A DNA stretch of 64,000 nucleotides from an uncultured Candidatus Saccharibacteria bacterium (GTDB taxonomy: Bacteria; Patescibacteriota; Saccharimonadia; Saccharimonadales; Saccharimonadaceae), in contig CAZMQX010000001.1 of assembly GCA_964568745.1 (NCBI GenBank), forward strand, positions 13,408-77,407, in the 5' to 3' direction. Below, piece by piece: positions 8,627 through 63,318 of the stretch; the stretch's first letter is position 1, and the number at the start of each line of letters is the position of its first letter. A program made the translations under genes and the position numbers. The notes under the pieces were generated by a model. That model made no database searches, was not told where the DNA came from, and saw nothing but the letters and a program-made list of their open reading frames with translations.

Positions 8627-9307
8627 ATGGCAGATCTATACATAGTACATGGCTGGACTTACACCGTAGAGCCGTGGAAGGCGACGATTGAGATGCTGCG
8701 CGAGAAGGGGCTTAGTATTAAAATGCTTAAGGTGCCTGGACTGACAGAGCCGTCGCAAAAAGAATTTACGATCGAGGATTATGTGAAATGGGCCGACCGT
8801 GAAATACCCGATGGAGCGATTGCGTTAGGCCACTCTAATGGTGGACGGATTCTTCTTAACCTCTGCGCTAAAAATCCTGACAAGTTAAAATATCTAATTT
8901 TGCTCGATGCGGCCGGTATTTACGAGCCTTCTAAACGTAAAATATTAGTAGAAAAGATTGCCAAAGTTGGCAAGCCGCTAAAAAAGATTGCGGTGATCGA
9001 CAAAGCCTTTCATCGTTTAACTGGTTCAACCGATTATTCGCGAGCTCCCGAAAACATGAAAAGGACGCTGGCCAATATGCTAGAGTCAGACAAAGACTTG
9101 GACCTAAGCAAGGTCGAGACCAAGACCTTTATCTTATGGGGTAAGAAAGATACCACTACACCGCCAAGACAGGCGACTACTATGTACGAAAAATTGCCGA
9201 ATGCTGAGCTTAAATTCTATGCGAACTGGACACACGCGCCTTATATTTCTGATCCTGAAGGACTGGCGAGGGCGCTTCGCACCTTGATCGAAAGGATGAA
9301 AAAGTGA
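8627..9307 (+). CDS. Alpha/beta hydrolase
   Basis: HGW oxyanion motif, GHSNGG nucleophile elbow, WGKKD, C-terminal His (THAP). Confidence 0.85.
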   Translation: MADLYIVHGWTYTVEPWKATIEMLREKGLSIKMLKVPGLTEPSQKEFTIEDYVKWADREIPDGAIALGHSNGGRILLNLCAKNPDKLKYLILLDAAGIYEPSKRKILVEKIAKVGKPLKKIAVIDKAFHRLTGSTDYSRAPENMKRTLANMLESDKDLDLSKVETKTFILWGKKDTTTPPRQATTMYEKLPNAELKFYANWTHAPYISDPEGLARALRTLIERMKK

Positions 9308-10524
9308 AGAGATACTTCCTAGGGATGGCAGCAGGATATCGATGGAAAGATATCTTCCGACATACTTTTGCAGTGGGCGGTGAAAAAGATAGGGATTTGC
9401 TTTGTCAATATCTAAACAAACGCTACGGGGGCGAGACGATACTTTGTAAAAACGGGCGCTCGGCACTTGGATTGGCGTTAAAAGCGTATTTCGAGCCTGG
9501 TGACGCCGTGATTGTTAACGGTTTTACGTGCTATGCTGTATTTGAAGCGATAAAAGCGGCTGGGCTTACACCGATATTCGTGGATATATCCCAAGAAGAT
9601 TTGAACTTTGATGTAGTGGCACTCGGCAAGCTCAACACGTCTCATTCGGGGCCGCGTCGCTCGCGCCCGTCGCCACGGGGCTCGCGCGCTAAATCTCGCG
9701 CTGCCGCGCTCCGAAATGCCCCGAACGAGACATTATTGAGCTTGCCGATACGAGGCATCATCGTACAAAATTCCTTAGGGAATCCAGCAGACATCGTCGC
9801 GATCGAGAAGCTCGCAAAGAAATACGATTTAACGATCATCGAGGACATGGCGCATTGCGTTGGAGTAAAATACGCAGATGGACGCGAATGCGGCACTGTG
9901 GGCGTAGCGGCGGCTTTTTCGTTTGGGAAGGACAAGGTGATCGATACGGTCTCTGGTGGAGCTGTAGTATTCAGGGAGCCTGCTAAGCATAAGATTGAAT
10001 TACCTAATTTGAGACCTAGGCCGTCAGACCATTTACGAGCAAGATTCTATCCGCTTTTTGGAGGAATTTGCAGAAGTTTGACCGCTGTACATTTAGGTGG
10101 TCTCTTGATGCGTGGATTAGTAAAGATTCATTGGGTGGAGAAATCCGCCGACAATCGTTTAGATTTTCGACGAGTGATCTCGGGATTTGAAGCAAAACTG
10201 GCTTTGAGGCAGTTTGAAGCGCTTTCTCATAACAAGAAACAGCCAATACGGGAGTTCTGTTTGATCAACAACCGCAATGAAGTGCTAAAAAAGCTGGCCA
10301 AAGCGGGATACTATCTAGATGGGTTGTGGTACAAACAACCTGTTTCGCCGGAACGCTACTATAAAAAAGTACATTTCCCAGAAGAAAAATGCAAGACAGC
10401 GGTATATGTTGCAAAACACATTATTAATTTACCAACAAACTATGGCGAAAAGGCCACTAGAAAAGCAAAGCAGATAATCAAACCATATCTGGTGAAAGGA
10501 GGTAGTGTTGAACAGCCTAGCTAG
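9304..10524 (+). CDS. DegT/DnrJ/EryC1/StrS-family PLP aminotransferase carrying an in-frame palindromic insertion
   Basis: NGRSAL, FTC..V, IIEDMAH, FSFGKDK (PLP lysine), GGA; ~42-aa atypical insert GKLNTS...TLLSLP. Confidence 0.8.
   Translation: MKRYFLGMAAGYRWKDIFRHTFAVGGEKDRDLLCQYLNKRYGGETILCKNGRSALGLALKAYFEPGDAVIVNGFTCYAVFEAIKAAGLTPIFVDISQEDLNFDVVALGKLNTSHSGPRRSRPSPRGSRAKSRAAALRNAPNETLLSLPIRGIIVQNSLGNPADIVAIEKLAKKYDLTIIEDMAHCVGVKYADGRECGTVGVAAAFSFGKDKVIDTVSGGAVVFREPAKHKIELPNLRPRPSDHLRARFYPLFGGICRSLTAVHLGGLLMRGLVKIHWVEKSADNRLDFRRVISGFEAKLALRQFEALSHNKKQPIREFCLINNRNEVLKKLAKAGYYLDGLWYKQPVSPERYYKKVHFPEEKCKTAVYVAKHIINLPTNYGEKATRKAKQIIKPYLVKGGSVEQPS
9623..9748. repeat. Palindromic element E1 (family A), in frame in the DegT gene
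   Basis: 13-bp perfect inverted arms tcggcaagctcaa/ttgagcttgccga, inner gtctc/gagac and ttcggggc/gccccgaa; 73-bp core (9649-9721) identical to 11539-11611. Confidence 0.92.
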
Positions 10525-11512
10525 CGCGGAAGAATGGCAAAAGGTGGTCAAAAAGCACCCGGAAGCTAATTTTTTGCAATCACCTACTTACGGTAAAATG
10601 CATACGATCATCGGAGAAAAAGTCATTTTGGAGGATTTTGATGGGGGAGGTTGGGCGCTGATGATTATACATGATGCTAAACGTGGTAGATATATGGAGA
10701 TTCCGTGCGGGCCATTGCTAGACTGGGGTGACTTGAAGCAAACGAAGAAGATATTTGGCCTAATCCGTGATATTGCTAAAAAAGAGCATTGTGTATTTGT
10801 GAGAGTAAGGCCGCAACTTCCTGCCACTTCTGATAATCTTCAGCTTTTGGCCTCACTGGACCTTAAAAAAGCGCCGATGCACCTTGCGGCAGAGCATACT
10901 GTAATGATTGATCTCACCAAGACAGAAGAGGAACTACTTGCGGCGATGCGCAGACAAACACGCTACGAAGTGAGGCGAGCCGATAAGCTGGGCATTCGCG
11001 TGTCGAGAGACGATTCAAAGGATTGTTTCCGAGAATTTCATTCCATACAGGTTGAAACCGCTAAAAGACAAGGGTTTGTGCCACCAAGCCTAAATACTCT
11101 GTTTGCTGAGCGTGAGGCTTTCTTAGGTTCAGCATGGATTTACAAGGCAACGACCGACATAGATGGTGTACAAAAGCCGATGGCTTATGGGTTAATCATC
11201 GGCGATGGGCTTGAGGCCGACTATTACGAAGCGGCGTCGACAGATCTTAATCGCAAACTGCCCGGAGCGTACGCTTTATTATGGCAGGCGATGCGTGACC
11301 TCAAAAAGGCTGGCTATCAGCGTTTTAATTTGTGGGGGATCGCACCAGCCGGACAGCCAAATCACCGTTACGCCGGAGTGACTACTTTTAAGACTGGTTT
11401 CGGTGGTGAAGTTGTAGAATACGTGCCGGCGCATGACATGGTGATTTCACGGATGCGGTATCTAAAAGATTTAGTGGTAGAAAAAGCCAGGAAGAAACGG
11501 AGGCACCTATGA
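10505..11512 (+). CDS. FemAB/FemX-family peptidoglycan aminoacyltransferase
   Basis: NFLQS, GPLLDW, RVRP, MRRQTRYEVRRA, NLWG, FKTGFGG; GTG start with SD AAGGAGG. Confidence 0.88.
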   Translation: MLNSLASAEEWQKVVKKHPEANFLQSPTYGKMHTIIGEKVILEDFDGGGWALMIIHDAKRGRYMEIPCGPLLDWGDLKQTKKIFGLIRDIAKKEHCVFVRVRPQLPATSDNLQLLASLDLKKAPMHLAAEHTVMIDLTKTEEELLAAMRRQTRYEVRRADKLGIRVSRDDSKDCFREFHSIQVETAKRQGFVPPSLNTLFAEREAFLGSAWIYKATTDIDGVQKPMAYGLIIGDGLEADYYEAASTDLNRKLPGAYALLWQAMRDLKKAGYQRFNLWGIAPAGQPNHRYAGVTTFKTGFGGEVVEYVPAHDMVISRMRYLKDLVVEKARKKRRHL

Positions 11513-12645
11513 GCCAGATGAAAAATTCATTGAATCTCGGGCCGCGTCGCTCGCGCCCGTCGCCACGGGGCTCGCGCGCTAAATCTCGCGCTGCCGCGCT
11601 CCGAAATGCCCTCGATTTCAATGAATCTTTCCATCTTGAGTCTGCTTCCGATCGTGCTTCCTGGGATAGTTTTATCACTTCGCATTCAGAGGCAAATTTC
11701 TTGCAGTCGTGGGATTTTTATGAATTCCACAAGGCGCGGGGCAAGAAGGTTGTACGGCGCATCGTAATGCTTGACAATAAAATTGTCGGAGCTTATGCCG
11801 GAGTGGTAGAAACTGCTAAACGCGGGCGATATATGGCGATTGCCGGCGGGCCTATTCTTGATTGGCGCGACAAAAAACTAGTCAAGTTAATTTTTGATGA
11901 TATCCACGAGGAAGGAAAAAAGGCAGAGTGTGTGTTTGTGCGCATACGGCCACAGCTTGAGTTGTCCGACCAGTCTCTTCGTTTGATGGCAGAACTAAAA
12001 TTGAAGAAAGCACCGATGTATTTGTCGGTGGAATATGCTGGTGTACTAGACCTCAAAAAACCTGAAGAAGAGATCTTGGCCGGAGCATCGCAGGGTTTTC
12101 GTCGCAAGCTCAGAAAAGCCCTGAAAAATGACATAGAGATCACGGCAGATACGTCTGATGTTGCAATAAATGAATTCTGTCGTCTCGAAAAGTTACACGC
12201 TGAACGTCAAAAATATGTGGCTTTTTCCTCAAGTTTCCTGACGAAACAATTTGAGGCCTTTCGTGATGGGAACGAGATATTGATCTACACGGCACGAAAG
12301 GACGGTGAGGTCCTGGCGCAGAATTTCATGATTTTTTATGGACCAGAAGCGAGCTATCATTATGGCGTGTCATCGGAGCTTGGCACAAAATACTCTGCGG
12401 CTCCACTTCTACACATAAAAGCGATGGAGGAAGCCAGAAAACGCGGTTGCATACGCTATAATCTCTGGGGGATCGTGGAGCCAGAAGAGAAATCTCATCG
12501 TTTTTATGGAGTATCCGAGTTTAAACGCTCATTTGGTTGCGAAGAACTGCGCTATACGCCAGCTCACGATATGATCCTAAAACCAACTGCTTATCAACTA
12601 ACCAAAATAGTTGAAACTGCGCGCAAGAAAAAACGCCATGTATAA
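11509..12645 (+). CDS. Second FemAB/FemX-family aminoacyltransferase, N-terminal palindromic insertion
   Basis: NFLQSW, GGPILDW, YNLWG, FKRSFG; ATGA overlap with the upstream paralogue. Confidence 0.88.
   Translation: MSQMKNSLNLGPRRSRPSPRGSRAKSRAAALRNALDFNESFHLESASDRASWDSFITSHSEANFLQSWDFYEFHKARGKKVVRRIVMLDNKIVGAYAGVVETAKRGRYMAIAGGPILDWRDKKLVKLIFDDIHEEGKKAECVFVRIRPQLELSDQSLRLMAELKLKKAPMYLSVEYAGVLDLKKPEEEILAGASQGFRRKLRKALKNDIEITADTSDVAINEFCRLEKLHAERQKYVAFSSSFLTKQFEAFRDGNEILIYTARKDGEVLAQNFMIFYGPEASYHYGVSSELGTKYSAAPLLHIKAMEEARKRGCIRYNLWGIVEPEEKSHRFYGVSEFKRSFGCEELRYTPAHDMILKPTAYQLTKIVETARKKKRHV
11525..11626. repeat. Palindromic element E2 (family A), in frame near the FemAB-2 N-terminus
   Basis: 10-bp perfect arms attcattgaa/ttcaatgaat; core identical to E1. 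Confidence 0.92.
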
Positions 12646-19047: not shown

Positions 19048-19855
19048 AATTTTTTCCTGGAATGTTAATGGTTTGCGCGCGGTAATTCGTAAAGGGGCCT
19101 TACAAAAATTCATCCAGGAATATCAGCCGGATATTTTGTGCCTGCAAGAGATTAAGGCGAAACCAGAGCAAGTGGAGTATGATTTTCCGGGATACAAGGT
19201 ATTTTGGAATCCAGCAGAGCGAGCTGGCTATAGCGGGACGGCTACATTAGTTAGGGAAGAATTATTATCATTGCTTTCCTCAGCTGACTTGTTCGCCAAA
19301 AATCAAGATAATTATGCTTCGGAAAGCAACGATAATAATTCTTTCAACATAGCTGTTGACGAAGGCAGGATTCTTACGCTTGACTTTGAAAAGTTTTATT
19401 TAGTAAATGTTTATGTGCCGAATTCGAAGCCGGATCTAGCGAGATTGAAATTGCGTGAGGCAGAGTGGGATCCGGAGCTGCTGCGGTACTTAAAAGAGCT
19501 AAAAAAGACCAAGCCGGTGGTGGTGTGTGGGGATTTTAATGCAGCGCATAATGAGATCGATATTGCGAGACCGAAGACCAATCATCATTCGGCGGGGTTT
19601 ACCGATGAAGAGAGAAAGGGAATCACAAATTACATTAAGGCTGGATTAGTCGATACCTTTCGCTATTTGCATCCAGGATCGGTCCATTATACCTGGTGGA
19701 GTCACTGGGGCCAAGCGCGAGCAAACAATATCGGCTGGCGGATCGATTATTTCTTTGTGTCTGAATCTCTTAAAAGTAAGCTAGTCTCAGCGGAAATTTA
19801 CGAAAACGTGATGGGATCGGATCACTGCCCGATTTCGATCGAGCTGGAGATCTAA
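19040..19855 (+). CDS. xth: Exodeoxyribonuclease III / AP endonuclease with an in-frame hairpin insertion
   Basis: SWNVNGLRA, LQEIK, GYSGTA, EGR, YVPNS, CGDFN, WRIDYF, SDHCP; start at ATG 19040. Confidence 0.93.
   Translation: MLKIFSWNVNGLRAVIRKGALQKFIQEYQPDILCLQEIKAKPEQVEYDFPGYKVFWNPAERAGYSGTATLVREELLSLLSSADLFAKNQDNYASESNDNNSFNIAVDEGRILTLDFEKFYLVNVYVPNSKPDLARLKLREAEWDPELLRYLKELKKTKPVVVCGDFNAAHNEIDIARPKTNHHSAGFTDEERKGITNYIKAGLVDTFRYLHPGSVHYTWWSHWGQARANNIGWRIDYFFVSESLKSKLVSAEIYENVMGSDHCPISIELEI
19255..19345. repeat. Palindromic element E3 (family B), in frame in xth
   Basis: 13-bp arm aagaattattatc/gataataattctt plus 9-bp ttgctttcc/ggaaagcaa separated by one mismatch; shares TCAGCTG(G)ACTTG and TTATGCTTC(A/G)GAAA with the priA element. 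Confidence 0.85.
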
Positions 19856-36597: not shown

Positions 36598-37989
36598 ATG
36601 AAGAGATTGCCTATCGTAGCGTTGATTGGTCAGACGAATGCTGGAAAATCGAGCATCCTGAATCGTTTGGCGCGCAAAAATATCGCCATTGTAGCACGCG
36701 AGGAGGGAACTACGCGCGATAATGTTGTGGCAACGATAGATGATAGTTTTATTTTGATAGATACTGCTGGTCTGAAAGACCCGTCTGATGATTTTGAGGC
36801 ATCGATCCAAGAACAGATCAGTGACGCGATCGATGCGGCCGATGTAATATTGGTCACATTGGATTCGTCGAAATATTTTGATCATCGTGACGCAAAAATT
36901 GCCAAGGATGCGCTCCGTTCTAAAAAGCCGGTTTTGCTCGTTTTGAATAAGTGCGACTTAGGCGAGTCATTGCCGATAGAAGAATTTCGCGCCCTCGGTA
37001 TTGCGCCAGAGAACACTTTTTATATTTCGGCGACGACTGGACAGGGTATTGACAGCCTGAAAAGGCAATTGGAATATGGTTTTTCTCGGGACGGCGTCGC
37101 TCCATCCCGTCGTCACGGGCGGAGCGCGCCTTCATCCTCGGTCGTAACCTCCGGACACCCTCAAAAAACATATTCCCAATTGCCTTTTTGTCAAACTCCC
37201 CTGAAAATCGCTCTGATCGGGCGGCCGAATGTCGGGAAGTCGTCGCTTTTTAATGCTCTGGGGAAGAAACAGCAGGCGATCGTGAGTTCAAAACAGGGAA
37301 CCACGCGCGATGTAAATCGTGTATCCGTGAAGTACAAGGGACGAGAGCTTGAGATTTTAGACACGGCGGGCCTGAGAAAGCCAGGGAAGCGCGAAGTGGG
37401 GATCGAAAAGTTCTCAGCGATTCGTACTTTAGCGGCGATTGAGGAGGCGGATATTTGTTGTCTTCTCGTCGATGCTACCGAGCCGCACGCTAAGCTCGAC
37501 CAAACTCTCGCTGGACAGATCGTTGAAGCCGGTAAAGGTATAATCATGGTGGTGACCAAAGTAGACTTACTGAAGTCGTCAGCTGAGGATTCGAATACAC
37601 TTCTTGATGACCTTGAGCGAGATTTTGACTTTTTGCCGTTTGCGCCGGTGGTATTGACTAGCTCTGAGACAGGGGAGAATGTCACAAGATTATTTGAACT
37701 AGCACTCCAGATAGACGAATCAAGACACCAAGAGGTCAAAACTTCAGAACTCAATAAGATCCTCGGCGATGCGATGGTGAGCCACCCGCCGGCTGGCCTC
37801 AAAAATACAAGACCAAAACCAAAATACATCGTGCAAACTGATACTTGCCCACCGTGGTTTGTGGTACATGGTCACGACCTAGGGTTGCTACATTGGTCGT
37901 GGAAGCGATTTTTGGAGCGCAAAATCCGTGAAAAATACCCGTTTATTGGTACTCCGATCATGTTTTCTTTTCGAAACGACCAAAAATAA
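36598..37989 (+). CDS. der: Ribosome biogenesis GTPase Der (EngA) with an in-frame palindromic insertion in the GD1-GD2 linker
   Basis: Two G-domains (GQTNAGKS, DTAG, NKCD; GRPNVGKS, DTAG, TKVD) and KH-like C-terminus. Confidence 0.96.
   Translation: MKRLPIVALIGQTNAGKSSILNRLARKNIAIVAREEGTTRDNVVATIDDSFILIDTAGLKDPSDDFEASIQEQISDAIDAADVILVTLDSSKYFDHRDAKIAKDALRSKKPVLLVLNKCDLGESLPIEEFRALGIAPENTFYISATTGQGIDSLKRQLEYGFSRDGVAPSRRHGRSAPSSSVVTSGHPQKTYSQLPFCQTPLKIALIGRPNVGKSSLFNALGKKQQAIVSSKQGTTRDVNRVSVKYKGRELEILDTAGLRKPGKREVGIEKFSAIRTLAAIEEADICCLLVDATEPHAKLDQTLAGQIVEAGKGIIMVVTKVDLLKSSAEDSNTLLDDLERDFDFLPFAPVVLTSSETGENVTRLFELALQIDESRHQEVKTSELNKILGDAMVSHPPAGLKNTRPKPKYIVQTDTCPPWFVVHGHDLGLLHWSWKRFLERKIREKYPFIGTPIMFSFRNDQK
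37060..37188. repeat. Palindromic element E4 (diverged family A), in frame in der
   Basis: 13-bp perfect arms aaaaggcaattgg/ccaattgcctttt; 79-nt core 37084-37162 shares blocks tctcggg, gcgtcgctc, cccgtcg, cacggg, gcgcgc, ctccg, ccctc with 11535-11613. Confidence 0.88.
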
Positions 37990-52938: not shown

Positions 52939-54810
52939 TTATAATACTCCTGGTTTGATTTTCAAGTAGTCGATGAGATAATTTGAGACATCGTCAAATA
53001 GACCGCTTGCGATCTGGCCATCAAGATATTGACCCTCTCCTAGCATTTTTACCATGATGACGTATGACGGCATTTCACCATTTGGAGCTACGAAGCCGAT
53101 ATAAGTACCGACAGTCTCACTCATGGTGTCGTCGTAGGCGCCGTCTTTGATTACCTGAGCGGTGCCAGATTTGCCACCAATGGTATAGCCAGGGCGATCG
53201 ATGCCGGCTTTGACTTTGTAGTCGCGGTTGTTAATAAACATGTCACGCATTGCGGCAGAAGTCTCATCTGATAAAATTTTATCTTCGATCTTATTGCTCG
53301 ACGGGTCTTGCCGCGCCTTCTCCTCCCCCATTTTGCTATCGCTCAATGGGGGACCCCCTCCAGGCGCGTCACCCGTCGATGTAACACTTTTTGAGACAAC
53401 TTCTCCGTTTTCGTAATACCCTTTAATAATCGTCGGAGTGCGCCAATAGCCACCATTTACGACCGCCGAGTAAGCCGTGGCGGTCTGAATCATGGTGATG
53501 CCGAGGTTTTGACCAAATGTCATGTTGGCGTACACCGAATCACGCCCCCAACCTTCGTTTGGATCTGGAATAAAGCCTTCGGCTTCAATTAGCTCGATAC
53601 CCGTAGCTTGGCCTAAACGGAATTTATTGTAATAATAATCATAGAGCTTTTCCCTGCCCTGCTGGGTGATTTGATTCGAGTTGCCGCCGAGTAGTTTTAG
53701 AGCATAAATCGAGCCAGTATTCAGCGACCAATAGAGAGCGGTGCGCATATTGATGGTGCCATACAAACTAGAGCGTTGCTCAGCATTCTTGATCTCCCAG
53801 TCATCTACCACTTCGTAGCCTTGGTTAAAATACGTAGTATCTGGGCTCATGACGCCTTCATTAATTGCGGCCGAAAAGGCAAAACTTTTGCAGACGGAAG
53901 CTGGCTCGTATGGGACTTCGGTGACTTGATTGAGATAAGCTGAAGCATCGGTGACGTCACCATAGTTTGCTGGATTGTAATTTGGTAGATTGGCCATAGT
54001 CAATACTTCTCCAGTGTTTGGGTTCATGACTAATACTGATGCATGAGTGGCGGCGGTAGAATTAATGTGATTCATCGCAATTTCTTCGACGCCCTGCTCG
54101 AGTCCGCGGTCAATAGAGAGAACGAGATCTTTGCCGTCTTCGGCGGGGATCTTGACGTTGTCGCTGCCAATGCTCAGTGCAACTTTGTTGACATCGGCGG
54201 TAGATTTAATGGTGCCGTCCTTGCCAGCAAGTATGCTGTTTAGTGAACCCTCTATGCCATATTGGCCAAGGCCGTCGGCGTTCACAAAACCTAGCACAGT
54301 AGAAGCAAGCGTCCCTTCTGGATAAACTCGTTCGTTGGATTTTTTGAACCAGACGTTATCTAATTTTGCGTCGCTTAGCTTTTCAATGATGTCACGCGGG
54401 ACATTTTTGGCGACAATGGAATAGCGGAGTCCTTCTGTATTATACACTTCATCTAAATCTACGACGACATAATCTTTGGCGTAATTCTCGAGAGCTTGCT
54501 TGATGGTGTCTTTGTCGGTAACGGCAGGGTCAATAATAATCTGATATTTCGTCTGGTTGAGTACGATGGCAACTGGTTCGTTTTGATCCATCATGTATAT
54601 TTCCCCTCGCCTAGCCGTGATTGTCTCTAGAATGGTATGTTCTTCATCGGCCCTGGCGACCCATTGATCATGCTCAACAATCTGAATGAAAAAGAGTCGC
54701 ACCGTAATGATGGTAAGCGCGACTAACACGACGCCCCGTAATACCTTGAGGCGAGAACGTGGCGAGGCGGACGAGTTTTCGTCCTTATGATAATGATTAT
54801 TCCGTGGCAT
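52939..54810 (-). CDS. ftsI: Class B penicillin-binding protein with an in-frame palindromic insertion
   Basis: RGEI, R.YP, GQYGIE, EPASVCK (SxxK), SLN (SxN), GKSGTAQ; ~28-aa atypical insert TGDAPGGGPP...DPSS. Confidence 0.9.
   Translation of the reverse strand: MPRNNHYHKDENSSASPRSRLKVLRGVVLVALTIITVRLFFIQIVEHDQWVARADEEHTILETITARRGEIYMMDQNEPVAIVLNQTKYQIIIDPAVTDKDTIKQALENYAKDYVVVDLDEVYNTEGLRYSIVAKNVPRDIIEKLSDAKLDNVWFKKSNERVYPEGTLASTVLGFVNADGLGQYGIEGSLNSILAGKDGTIKSTADVNKVALSIGSDNVKIPAEDGKDLVLSIDRGLEQGVEEIAMNHINSTAATHASVLVMNPNTGEVLTMANLPNYNPANYGDVTDASAYLNQVTEVPYEPASVCKSFAFSAAINEGVMSPDTTYFNQGYEVVDDWEIKNAEQRSSLYGTINMRTALYWSLNTGSIYALKLLGGNSNQITQQGREKLYDYYYNKFRLGQATGIELIEAEGFIPDPNEGWGRDSVYANMTFGQNLGITMIQTATAYSAVVNGGYWRTPTIIKGYYENGEVVSKSVTSTGDAPGGGPPLSDSKMGEEKARQDPSSNKIEDKILSDETSAAMRDMFINNRDYKVKAGIDRPGYTIGGKSGTAQVIKDGAYDDTMSETVGTYIGFVAPNGEMPSYVIMVKMLGEGQYLDGQIASGLFDDVSNYLIDYLKIKPGVL
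53298..53379. repeat. Palindromic element E5, in frame in ftsI
   Basis: Three nested perfect stems: tcgacgggt/acccgtcga (9 bp), cgcgcct/aggcgcg (7 bp), tcccccatt/aatggggga (9 bp). Confidence 0.88.
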
Positions 54811-61239: not shown

Positions 61240-63318
61240 ATGTTTTATGAGGTGATACCGGAGGGGAAAGTGGAGGAGCTGACGTATTCGAGCGATGATT
61301 CCCTTTTGCCGGGGCAGGTGGTGTTGGTACCGGTTGGACGGCGAGTGGTACCAGGGATGGTGATTAAAAAAGTTGCGCAACCGGATTTTGCCACGAAAAA
61401 AATTTTGCAAGTTTTGTATTCAAAGCCGCTGCCGCAACATCTTCTAAAAACAATTGGCTTTATTCATGATTATTACATGGTATCATCGGGTTCAGCAGTG
61501 TCATTAGTACTGCCCAGAGGAGTACAGAAGAAACGCCGAAAAACCGAACAGATGTTCGGTACTATGCAGGATGTGGCTGTGTCTGTTTTTTCTTCAGCTG
61601 GACTTGAAAATTCAGAAACGTCATACGCAGGACGGCCGGGAGAACCGCCCGCCTCGCGGGCGAACCTCTCGGCGTCGTCTGGAATATACGTTCCTGAATT
61701 TTCAAATCATTTTATGCTTCAGAAAAAACAGATTCAGCCATATATCCCACTTAATACCTATCAAAAAAATGCCCTAGAAGGCCTTTTAAGGGCGCCAGGA
61801 GCCACGAAACTACTGCATGGCGTTACTGGTAGTGGTAAAACTAATATATACCTCAAAATGGCTTTAAATGCCCTTAGACAGCAAAAATCAACTATTCTTT
61901 TAGTGCCGGAAATTGCTTTGACGAGTCAGCTTGTTCGGGTTTTCCAGGATTATTTTGGGCCACGAGTGGTAGTGATGCACTCTAAACAAACAGAGGCAGA
62001 GCGGCATTTGATTTTTGAATCGATTCTGGCATCCAGAGAACCGCTAGTGGTGATTGGGCCGAGGTCGGCGCTGTTTGCTCCTCTATCTAATTTGGGGTTA
62101 ATTATCATCGACGAAGAACACGAAAACGCCTATTACCAAGAAAATTCGCCAAGATATTCTACAATCAGAGTAGCGAGTTTTATGGCAGATAAGTTAGGCT
62201 GCCCTCTGATATTGGGCTCGGCTACTCCAGACATTTCAGATTATTATTTGGCTCTAAAACGCGGTTCGTTGGTGCAACTACTCAAAAAGGCGAAAAATGC
62301 CGCTATAAAACCAGATATTGAAATCATTGACTTCAAAAACAGGGAGAATTTTAGCAAAAATAAATATTTTTCTAATCCCCTGTTAAAATCCATACAATCA
62401 AATCTAGAACAGGGGCGGCAGACGCTAATTTTTCACAACCGCAGAGGCTCTGCACCACTCACAATTTGTGAAAATTGTGGAGAGGAGATTCTGTGCCCAA
62501 ATTGTTTTTTGCCACTAAACTTGCATGCTGATCAATACGAGTTACATTGTCATACGTGTGGTTTTACAGAGAAGGTGCCAGCGGGATGCCCAAAGTGCGG
62601 AACGCCTGGATTAGTCCATAAAGGTTTTGGGACAAAACTACTAGAATCAGAGTTACATAAACTCTTCCCAAAGGCGGAAATTCGGAGATTCGATGCAGAT
62701 AACAAAAAAGACGAGAGTTTAGACGCTGTTTATTCAGAAGTAAAAAATGGCGAAGTGGATATAATAATCGGTACTCAAACGGTGGCAAAAGGACTAGATT
62801 TACCAAAATTGGCTACGGTAGGAGTAGTACAGGCAGATGCGGGGCTTTCGCTACCTGATTATATGGCGGAGGAACGAGTTTTTCAGTTGCTCACCCAGGT
62901 AATTGGAAGAGTAGGTCGTGGTCATCTAAAAGAAGCGAAGGTTTTCATCCAAACTTTTCGGCCGGAGCATCCAGTTTTGCAGTTTGCGGCAAGTGAGGAC
63001 TATTTGGGATTTTATGATTATCTAATACAGAGGCGACGTAAAGCCGGTTTTCCGCCGTTTCGATTTGTAATGAAACTTGAAATCACTATGAAAACAGAGG
63101 CAATAGTGCTGAAAAAGGTGCGAGAGCTAGTGTCGCGATTGTCGCAAGATGCTAGACTAATCGTTTCTCCACCGCAACCAGGATTTCATGAAAGAACTGC
63201 CAAAGGTTACACCTGGCAAATCATCGTGCGAAGTAAATCACGAAAAGCATTGATAGAAATATGCGAGAAACTAGACAAAAACTTCCGAGTGACTTTAGAC
63301 CCACCAGGGTTACTATAA
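61240..63318 (+). CDS. priA: Primosomal protein N' with a ~60-aa in-frame palindromic insertion
   Basis: G..V.VP.G.R, LHGVTGSGKT, IIDEEH, GSATP, NRRG, CxxC x4 zinc module, KGLD, Q..GR.GR; start at ATG 61240. Confidence 0.96.
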   Translation: MFYEVIPEGKVEELTYSSDDSLLPGQVVLVPVGRRVVPGMVIKKVAQPDFATKKILQVLYSKPLPQHLLKTIGFIHDYYMVSSGSAVSLVLPRGVQKKRRKTEQMFGTMQDVAVSVFSSAGLENSETSYAGRPGEPPASRANLSASSGIYVPEFSNHFMLQKKQIQPYIPLNTYQKNALEGLLRAPGATKLLHGVTGSGKTNIYLKMALNALRQQKSTILLVPEIALTSQLVRVFQDYFGPRVVVMHSKQTEAERHLIFESILASREPLVVIGPRSALFAPLSNLGLIIIDEEHENAYYQENSPRYSTIRVASFMADKLGCPLILGSATPDISDYYLALKRGSLVQLLKKAKNAAIKPDIEIIDFKNRENFSKNKYFSNPLLKSIQSNLEQGRQTLIFHNRRGSAPLTICENCGEEILCPNCFLPLNLHADQYELHCHTCGFTEKVPAGCPKCGTPGLVHKGFGTKLLESELHKLFPKAEIRRFDADNKKDESLDAVYSEVKNGEVDIIIGTQTVAKGLDLPKLATVGVVQADAGLSLPDYMAEERVFQLLTQVIGRVGRGHLKEAKVFIQTFRPEHPVLQFAASEDYLGFYDYLIQRRRKAGFPPFRFVMKLEITMKTEAIVLKKVRELVSRLSQDARLIVSPPQPGFHERTAKGYTWQIIVRSKSRKALIEICEKLDKNFRVTLDPPGLL
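61569..61747. repeat. Palindromic element E6 (family B with a nested GC-rich hairpin), in frame in priA
   Basis: tggctg-NN-tctgttttttct/agaaaaaacaga-NN-cagcca (18 of 20 bp), ttgaaaattcag/ctgaattttcaa (12 bp), aacgt/acgtt, apical cgcccgc-ctc-gcgggcg. Confidence 0.9.

Follow-up and report, generated by a model that had tools for sequence, protein, structure and literature searches.

Why should two unrelated genes of the same operon carry, base for base, the same segment rich in guanine and cytosine (GC)? The question is raised by a stretch of DNA of 64,000 nt from an uncultured Candidatus Saccharibacteria bacterium (hereafter, the window, numbered from its first letter), in which an earlier note, made from the letters alone, had described the segments 9649–9721 and 11539–11611 as identical, 1890 bp apart, read in frame in unrelated proteins, more GC-rich than their surroundings and the product of very recent copying or gene conversion, with a possibly still active element behind them. 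The genome holding the window (G000) belongs to Candidatus Nanosyncoccus, within the Saccharibacteria, and consists of 643 kb in 28 contigs, with 44% GC and a completeness of 93.75%. All of the 73 nt were found to match, with a start-to-start distance of 1890 nt, and none of 100 shuffles yielded a comparable match; the GC content of the segment is clearly above that of the genome. The same 24 residues are encoded in frame by both copies, in a DegT/DnrJ/EryC1-type aminotransferase (9304–10524, plus strand, PF01041, 406 aa) and in the second of two FemAB-family transferases (FemAB-2; 11509–12645, plus strand, PF02388, 378 aa), the start of which overlaps the stop of the upstream FemAB gene. The pair is therefore real, but its extent had been understated, since both segments are members of a genus-wide family with a covarying core, arms that appear to be copied from the target and a rule of orientation. 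We consider it somewhat probable that they represent a genus-specific, non-autonomous hairpin repeat, comparable to the Rickettsia palindromic elements (RPEs), copied by a single-strand process that is specific to one replication strand and adds the core together with an inverted copy of the flank.

By combining BLAST with a motif scan, 21 full copies of the GC-rich core of ~73 nt, falling into several subfamilies, were identified in G000. One more is split between the end of contig C14 (15674–15693) and the start of contig C27 (1–48), where a repeat copy has broken the assembly. Three pairs of cores are 100% identical and have unrelated flanks, which supports the recent copying proposed in the earlier note; the pair in the window is close, while the members of the other two lie on different contigs, so that proximity within one operon is not required. 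By DNA similarity, the family is present in 16 of the 24 sampled genomes of the genus and in none of 16 further families from the same order. With 76 distinct copies as input, a covariance model recovered 18 copies in G000 and one in the sole other genome of the genus that was drawn; the order was further represented by 149 genomes, spread over 119 other genera, none of which gave a match. Among the genomes searched, the core family was found only in Candidatus Nanosyncoccus, to which it thus appears to be confined, and no description of these elements was found in the literature consulted. Within the genus, most of the orthologous sites in sister species are empty or occupied by another subfamily, and the same protein loops (in DegT, TrmD, TsaD, TruB and the N-terminus of FemAB-2) have been struck repeatedly across species, by other subfamilies and at slightly shifted points.

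On the better-folding strand, which we call the GA strand, the core is a covarying three-way junction, in which helix P1 (GGGC/GCCC) closes a short hairpin, P2, and a long one, P3, whose end is an invariant stem of five pairs capped by a loop of four bases. In the 76 distinct copies, 89% of the cells pair and both sides have changed in 22 of the 31 pairs; the covariation score of 0.356 was not reached by any of 500 shuffles (0.110) and compares with ≤0.066 in slid controls. Moreover, between subfamilies, entire helix segments are replaced by other complementary segments. Covariation and whole-helix swaps together argue that the fold is selected, implying that the single-stranded form matters. 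Both copies of the window pair have their GA strand on the minus strand, and are matched by the covariance model with E values of 1.4e-23 (9649–9721) and 2.3e-22 (11539–11611); for the first, the predicted folding energy is −66.5 kcal/mol on the minus strand and −51.8 kcal/mol on the plus strand.

All of the 21 full copies lie inside long housekeeping open reading frames (ORFs), have a length that is a multiple of three and no stops, and keep the downstream frame. The hosts are GatB, DegT, FemAB, Der, two methyltransferases, LeuRS, PheT, TruB, PolA, ArgRS (two copies), TrmD, TsaD, a class I tRNA synthetase (two copies), QueA, LigA, a DNA methylase, MgsA and an O-antigen ligase. A hairpin leaves on average only 1.5 of the three frames open, whereas that of the host is open in 21 of 21; the copies are read in several frames and in both orientations, with no conservation of any particular peptide. 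The FemAB-2 gene offers no in-frame start codon from the element to the conserved N-terminal W-D...ANFLQSWDFYEFH block, all possible starts being upstream of the element; therefore, translation must cross it, as the earlier note had maintained. Judging from the reading frames, the persisting copies are translated as inserts of 30–48 residues in tolerant protein loops. Neither an open host frame nor a preserved downstream frame would be required if the hairpin were excised from the mRNA. An intron, self-spliced or spliced by an enzyme, and an intein were rejected on the same observation, on the size of the inserts and on an Rfam scan of the region, which gave only noise and no match to group I or group II introns.

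An imperfect inverted repeat of its own closes each copy, prolonging P1 by 20–30 bp and bringing the whole hairpin to 115–145 nt. Even between copies with identical cores, the arms have nothing in common, and a search for arm copies elsewhere in G000 returned only chance 13–18-mers; a 9-nt match between the TsaD arm and the TrmD site was dismissed, being within chance expectation. Where do the arms come from? At seven of the eight resolvable sites, one arm consists of native gene sequence, and the other repeats it in inverted form. In the aminotransferase, the upstream arm (9623–9648, plus strand) encodes LGKLNTSHS, and these residues fall in the native linker when aligned with insert-free relatives, the empty relative P0003 having ...SHARGIIVQN there. 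It pairs with the downstream arm (9722–9748, plus strand), which encodes PNETLLSL, is an imperfect inverted copy of 9623–9648 and appears to have come in with the core. Accordingly, the protein has 406 aa, compared to 373 aa in P0003, the nearest empty relative, and the 33 additional residues correspond to 99 nt, that is, 73 nt of core and 26 nt of arm. In TrmD, about 15 members of the genus are empty, with 66–69 aa between two conserved motifs, and genome G016 has 98, i.e., 66 plus 32 aa; here, the conserved ARKFA is encoded by the upstream arm and the downstream arm is the inverted copy. Residue alignments, with the length excess read by eye, place the native arm upstream in QueA and MgsA and downstream in TruB and LigA, and in Der the upstream arm looks native, as read from the flanking residues of G000 alone. 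In FemAB-2, the upstream arm (11517–11538, plus strand) comprises the first codons of the gene and pairs with the downstream arm, 11612–11635 (plus strand); either of the two may be the native one. At most resolvable sites, therefore, the addition consists of the core plus an inverted copy of 20–30 nt of the adjacent gene sequence, and the arms are unique to each site. Two simpler schemes were rejected: a native arm in a fixed position (always upstream, or always 5′ on one strand), since both polarities occur, and arms that were palindromes before the insertion, since the orthologous empty sites have no palindrome.

The arms also evolve as pairs. The insertion in LigA is common to G000 and G046 with the same arms, identical at 46 of 48 bases; the other two bases make up a single compensated pair, in which the native arm has changed synonymously and the copy, to match, non-synonymously. 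The flanking coding DNA of the two species is 72–75% identical, and its third codon positions 43%. A similar double change was observed at TrmD in G024 and G004. The LigA locus of G046 (L181) also contains an unrelated 78-nt hairpin, nested exactly in the apical loop of P3 of the orthologous element and likewise read through without loss of frame; insertion may favour the tips of hairpins. In the LigA gene of G000 (L115), just downstream of the element, 17 extra residues (DEVDGG...KEVLEL) have no counterpart in G046 and G010; their DNA has a short inverted repeat of its own and may represent another small palindromic insertion or an event of arm growth.

The hairpins are not symmetric between strands. 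When the 5′ arm was aligned with the reverse complement of the 3′ arm, with a scoring that is symmetric between strands, the transitions giving G·T pairs were 62 on the GA strand and 13 on the other (p = 8e-9), or 35 against 5 if counted by element. In most copies, a tandem G·A/G·A lies between P1 and the arms on the GA strand. Single extra bases, mostly G and almost never C, number 60 in the 5′ arm of the GA strand against 29; they peak at ~10–11 and 21 nt from the core, and the outermost 8–10 bp are near-perfect. This asymmetry is independent of the side of the native arm and of the direction of the gene. A C-to-T mutation bias on the G-rich strand was rejected as the cause of the wobble asymmetry, since it predicts the opposite sign.

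The orientation of the core is tied to GC skew, which along the contigs of G000 is unusually strong for a genome of 44% GC (absolute values of 0.1 to 0.38 in 5-kb intervals). Of the 21 copies of G000, 19 have the GA strand on the C-rich strand, as do 42 of 52 copies in 8-kb loci of other Saccharibacteria genomes (p = 9e-6), for a total of 61/73. Genes on the G-rich strand hold 12 antisense copies and one sense copy, and those on the C-rich strand seven sense and one antisense. An orientation dictated by gene direction or by the need for open frames was therefore rejected, as C-rich-strand genes have mostly sense copies and G-rich-strand genes mostly antisense ones. The TrmD site is instructive: in G016 and G024, one and the same core points in opposite directions with respect to the gene, the gene itself switches skew strand between these genomes, and both copies obey the rule. 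Further in the window, a third member of the family, with a diverged core and its own arms, is located in der (EngA) at 37054–37197 (minus strand, G000:C1:50461-50604), where it uses another reading frame and is matched by the covariance model with an E value of 2.3e-12. Three more long in-frame hairpins with other cores were noticed in the window, in xth (19255–19345), ftsI (53298–53379) and priA (61569–61747); as in the main family, they fold better on the minus (C-rich) strand, with z-scores of −6 to −7.5.

We propose that copying would be tied to DNA replication, act on one strand and use the single-stranded folded core. A process of this kind would explain why the core is oriented by replication strand and not by the host gene, and why the wobbles, the tandem G·A and the bulges all lie on the same strand. 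The likeliest route would be that a nascent strand switches template onto another copy of the core, that the flank is then copied by fold-back, making the inverted arm, and that later template switching between the arms keeps them complementary; an enzyme encoded by the element would not be required. In fact, template switching creates, lengthens and evens out the arms of inverted repeats and flips the spacer between them (PMC8794818, PMC8604942, PMC13100816), and the arms so described are, as here, inverted adjacent sequence. The target-derived arms, the compensated changes and the core flipped at the TrmD site fit this picture; the difference is that the described events reuse local sequence only, whereas here a conserved foreign core of 73 nt joins distant loci. 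More tentatively, the repeats might even exemplify a new class of mobile DNA, a possibility we consider short of likely, in which a folded core of 73 nt without transposase is copied at the fork by host polymerases and, wherever it lands, writes the neighbouring gene sequence in inverted form as its own stem, which is then kept paired by selection or by repeated template switching.

Several observations do not sit well with this template-switch route for a non-autonomous repeat. The model leaves unexplained how a nascent strand finds a distant core as template. The native arm is found on either side of the core, which one fixed order of fold-back does not predict, and in TsaD both arms are foreign: the 26 relatives of ordinary spacing keep strictly to 35 aa, which G000 exceeds by 40 aa, the length of the whole hairpin. 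Furthermore, the arms of copies with identical cores are already mismatched, the pair in the window showing 3–6 mismatches or indels, too many for polymerase error; this suggests either older sites with cores evened out later, or selection. The excess of G·T on one strand, together with the conservation of the LigA hairpin, could mean that the folded strand is functional for the host and not a mere by-product. Finally, the assignment to replication strands was made from the GC skew of the contigs and not from a mapped origin. The strength of the asymmetry, the fixed distances of the bulges, the TsaD arms and the LigA conservation are not explained, and leave room for an unrecognised protein partner or a role at the level of the host.

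The mismatched arms bear first on the rival explanation that survives best, which we nevertheless regard as rather unlikely: that both sites of the window were occupied long ago by related elements and owe their identity to gene conversion across 1.9 kb, with no fresh insertion. In its favour, the two cores of 73 nt do not differ at a single base while the arms have 3–6 mismatches or indels, and short, close direct repeats are good substrates for gene conversion. Besides, the inserts are fixed in every independent contig with these proteins, and no empty allele of the same species appeared among the best protein matches, in which no insert-free DegT is closer than 76% identity. Two metagenome scans for an empty DegT allele returned nothing, and the filled allele was likewise not seen, indicating that the species is not in that collection. 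On the other hand, the two remaining pairs of 100% identical cores sit on different contigs, the conversion tracts would need, in each of the pairs, to end precisely where the core does, and the spread to 21 genes, with differing occupants at the same sites in sister species, is left unexplained. For the window pair specifically, conversion between neighbouring copies is still a live alternative. As to the variety of occupants, the DegT linker of relatives (P0002, P0004–P0006, P0013 and P0014; L033 and L034) contains at least three other kinds of insert of 30–45 residues, and the closest relative (79% identity) has a different insert at the same site.

Could a dedicated, unrecognised enzyme mobilise the cores in trans, either a recombinase for single-stranded DNA acting on the folded core at the fork, or a reverse transcriptase copying a core RNA, with the arms arising at or after integration? 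The covarying, sequence-specific three-way junction resembles a substrate recognised by a protein, and bulges spaced about one helical turn apart suggest a protein measuring along the stem. The orientation bias relative to replication would also fit, such a bias being a hallmark of IS200/IS605-type single-strand transposition and of endonuclease-less retrohoming. We looked for candidate genes in G000. No match to the Y1 (HUH) transposase PF01797 was found in this 93.75% complete genome, with positive controls, nor any TnpB homologue; a single tyrosine recombinase is present, together with two reverse transcriptase genes. The latter would be in favour of the retroelement version, but they were rejected as mobilisers by their distribution: G010 and G011, with 11–14 elements, have no reverse transcriptase, whereas G003, G013 and G021–G023 have the enzyme and no elements, the element-free genomes carrying one to three. 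One reverse transcriptase of G000 (441 aa) is encoded on the 2.3-kb contig C28 (L308:1-2319), together with an ORF of 294 aa of unknown function, between 52-nt terminal inverted repeats that are 96% complementary; these repeats were considered as the parent of the core and discarded, since they have no significant similarity to it. The other (385 aa, on contig C3, L307:84-2254) follows a protein of 339 aa with an HTH_3 domain and has generic reverse transcriptase models as best matches; this locus showed no pair of repeats such as diversity-generating retroelements typically have. Taken as a whole, mobilisation in trans seems unlikely to us.

A very improbable explanation is that the hairpin is maintained by selection on the host as a folded RNA or single-stranded DNA, be it a processing or binding site or an intron-like segment of mRNA. 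It draws on the LigA hairpin, which, arms included, is far better conserved between the two species than nearby synonymous sites and shows the compensatory change, and on the marked surplus of changes compatible with wobble pairing, and the tandem G·A, seen on one strand. The well-folding strand, however, is antisense to the mRNA in 13 of the 21 copies, all of which are in frame and open, which excision does not need; moreover, the orthologous sites of sister species are mostly empty or hold another subfamily, and no Rfam family matches. That one or both copies in the window are an artefact of assembly or binning, which the earlier note gave as the finding that would refute it, is hardly credible: repeats do break the assembly elsewhere, as in the copy split between C14 and C27, but both ORFs are intact and homologous on either side of the insert, and at least 24 contigs of independent assemblies, some longer than 50 kb, encode both exact proteins (406 and 378 aa) with their inserts.

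To return to the reading of a repeat copied through single strands, how does it compare to known systems? The closest ones, by analogy, appear to be the RPEs, of ~100–150 bp, which have no transposase of their own and are found, in a reduced genome, in frame within housekeeping genes unrelated to one another, where they are translated into loops that the proteins tolerate (PMC10969869). Here too, many short palindromic repeats are present in one reduced genome (21 full copies in 643 kb), in frame in housekeeping ORFs. The two seem to have the lifestyle in common and not the architecture, a distinction drawn from their descriptions and not from a comparison of sequences: within an RPE family, the entire palindrome is common to the copies, as is a peptide conserved in one frame, whereas the copies of Nanosyncoccus have just the core in common, with arms that are unique to the site and mostly target-derived; they are read in several frames and in either orientation, and their orientation goes with the replication strand.

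Orientation biased to the replication fork and an active folded single strand are also features of IS200/IS605 elements, PATEs and REP/REPIN-RAYT systems, which need a Y1 HUH transposase. The bias of 61/73 copies with respect to GC skew is the likeness; by contrast, IS200/IS605 and REP/REPIN systems have Y1 and conserved subterminal hairpins, REPs being extragenic, whereas here no Y1 was found, all copies are intragenic and the arms are not conserved. The attC sites of integrons are imperfect hairpins recognised by shape and not by sequence, in which extrahelical bases mark one strand; they lie between cassettes, beside an integron integrase, while the present elements come without cassettes, have a conserved core sequence and are translated. 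The GC clusters and double-hairpin elements of fungal mitochondria are GC-rich, structured, mobile and short, and reside in small, AT-richer genomes, sometimes in coding sequence, but they are organellar and unrelated in sequence; to our knowledge, neither kind has been reported to copy the target flank in inverted form. Classical miniature inverted-repeat transposable elements differ in that no terminal inverted repeats are common to all copies or to a parent insertion sequence, the arms being specific to the site and the one element seen with terminal repeats, contig C28, being unrelated, and, by inspection, no direct target-site duplication is present, the flanks being inverted and not direct repeats. 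We found no described bacterial repeat whose arms are an inverted copy of the adjoining gene sequence.

In-frame palindromic repeats in essential genes are known mainly from Rickettsia, and their movement is still without explanation. With a core fold, target-copied arms, a strand asymmetry and a rule of orientation, the spread of repeats that have no transposase becomes directly testable; related Saccharibacteria are culturable on host bacteria. On the practical side, marker proteins such as tRNA synthetases, TsaD, TrmD, LigA and PolA are inflated or altered by the inserts, which affects alignments, phylogenies and structure predictions, and copies of the repeat break assemblies. If the repeats do form a new class of mobile DNA as outlined above, the essential proteins of an ultra-small bacterium would keep gaining surface loops through a mechanism that is specific to one strand and leaves a recognisable footprint.

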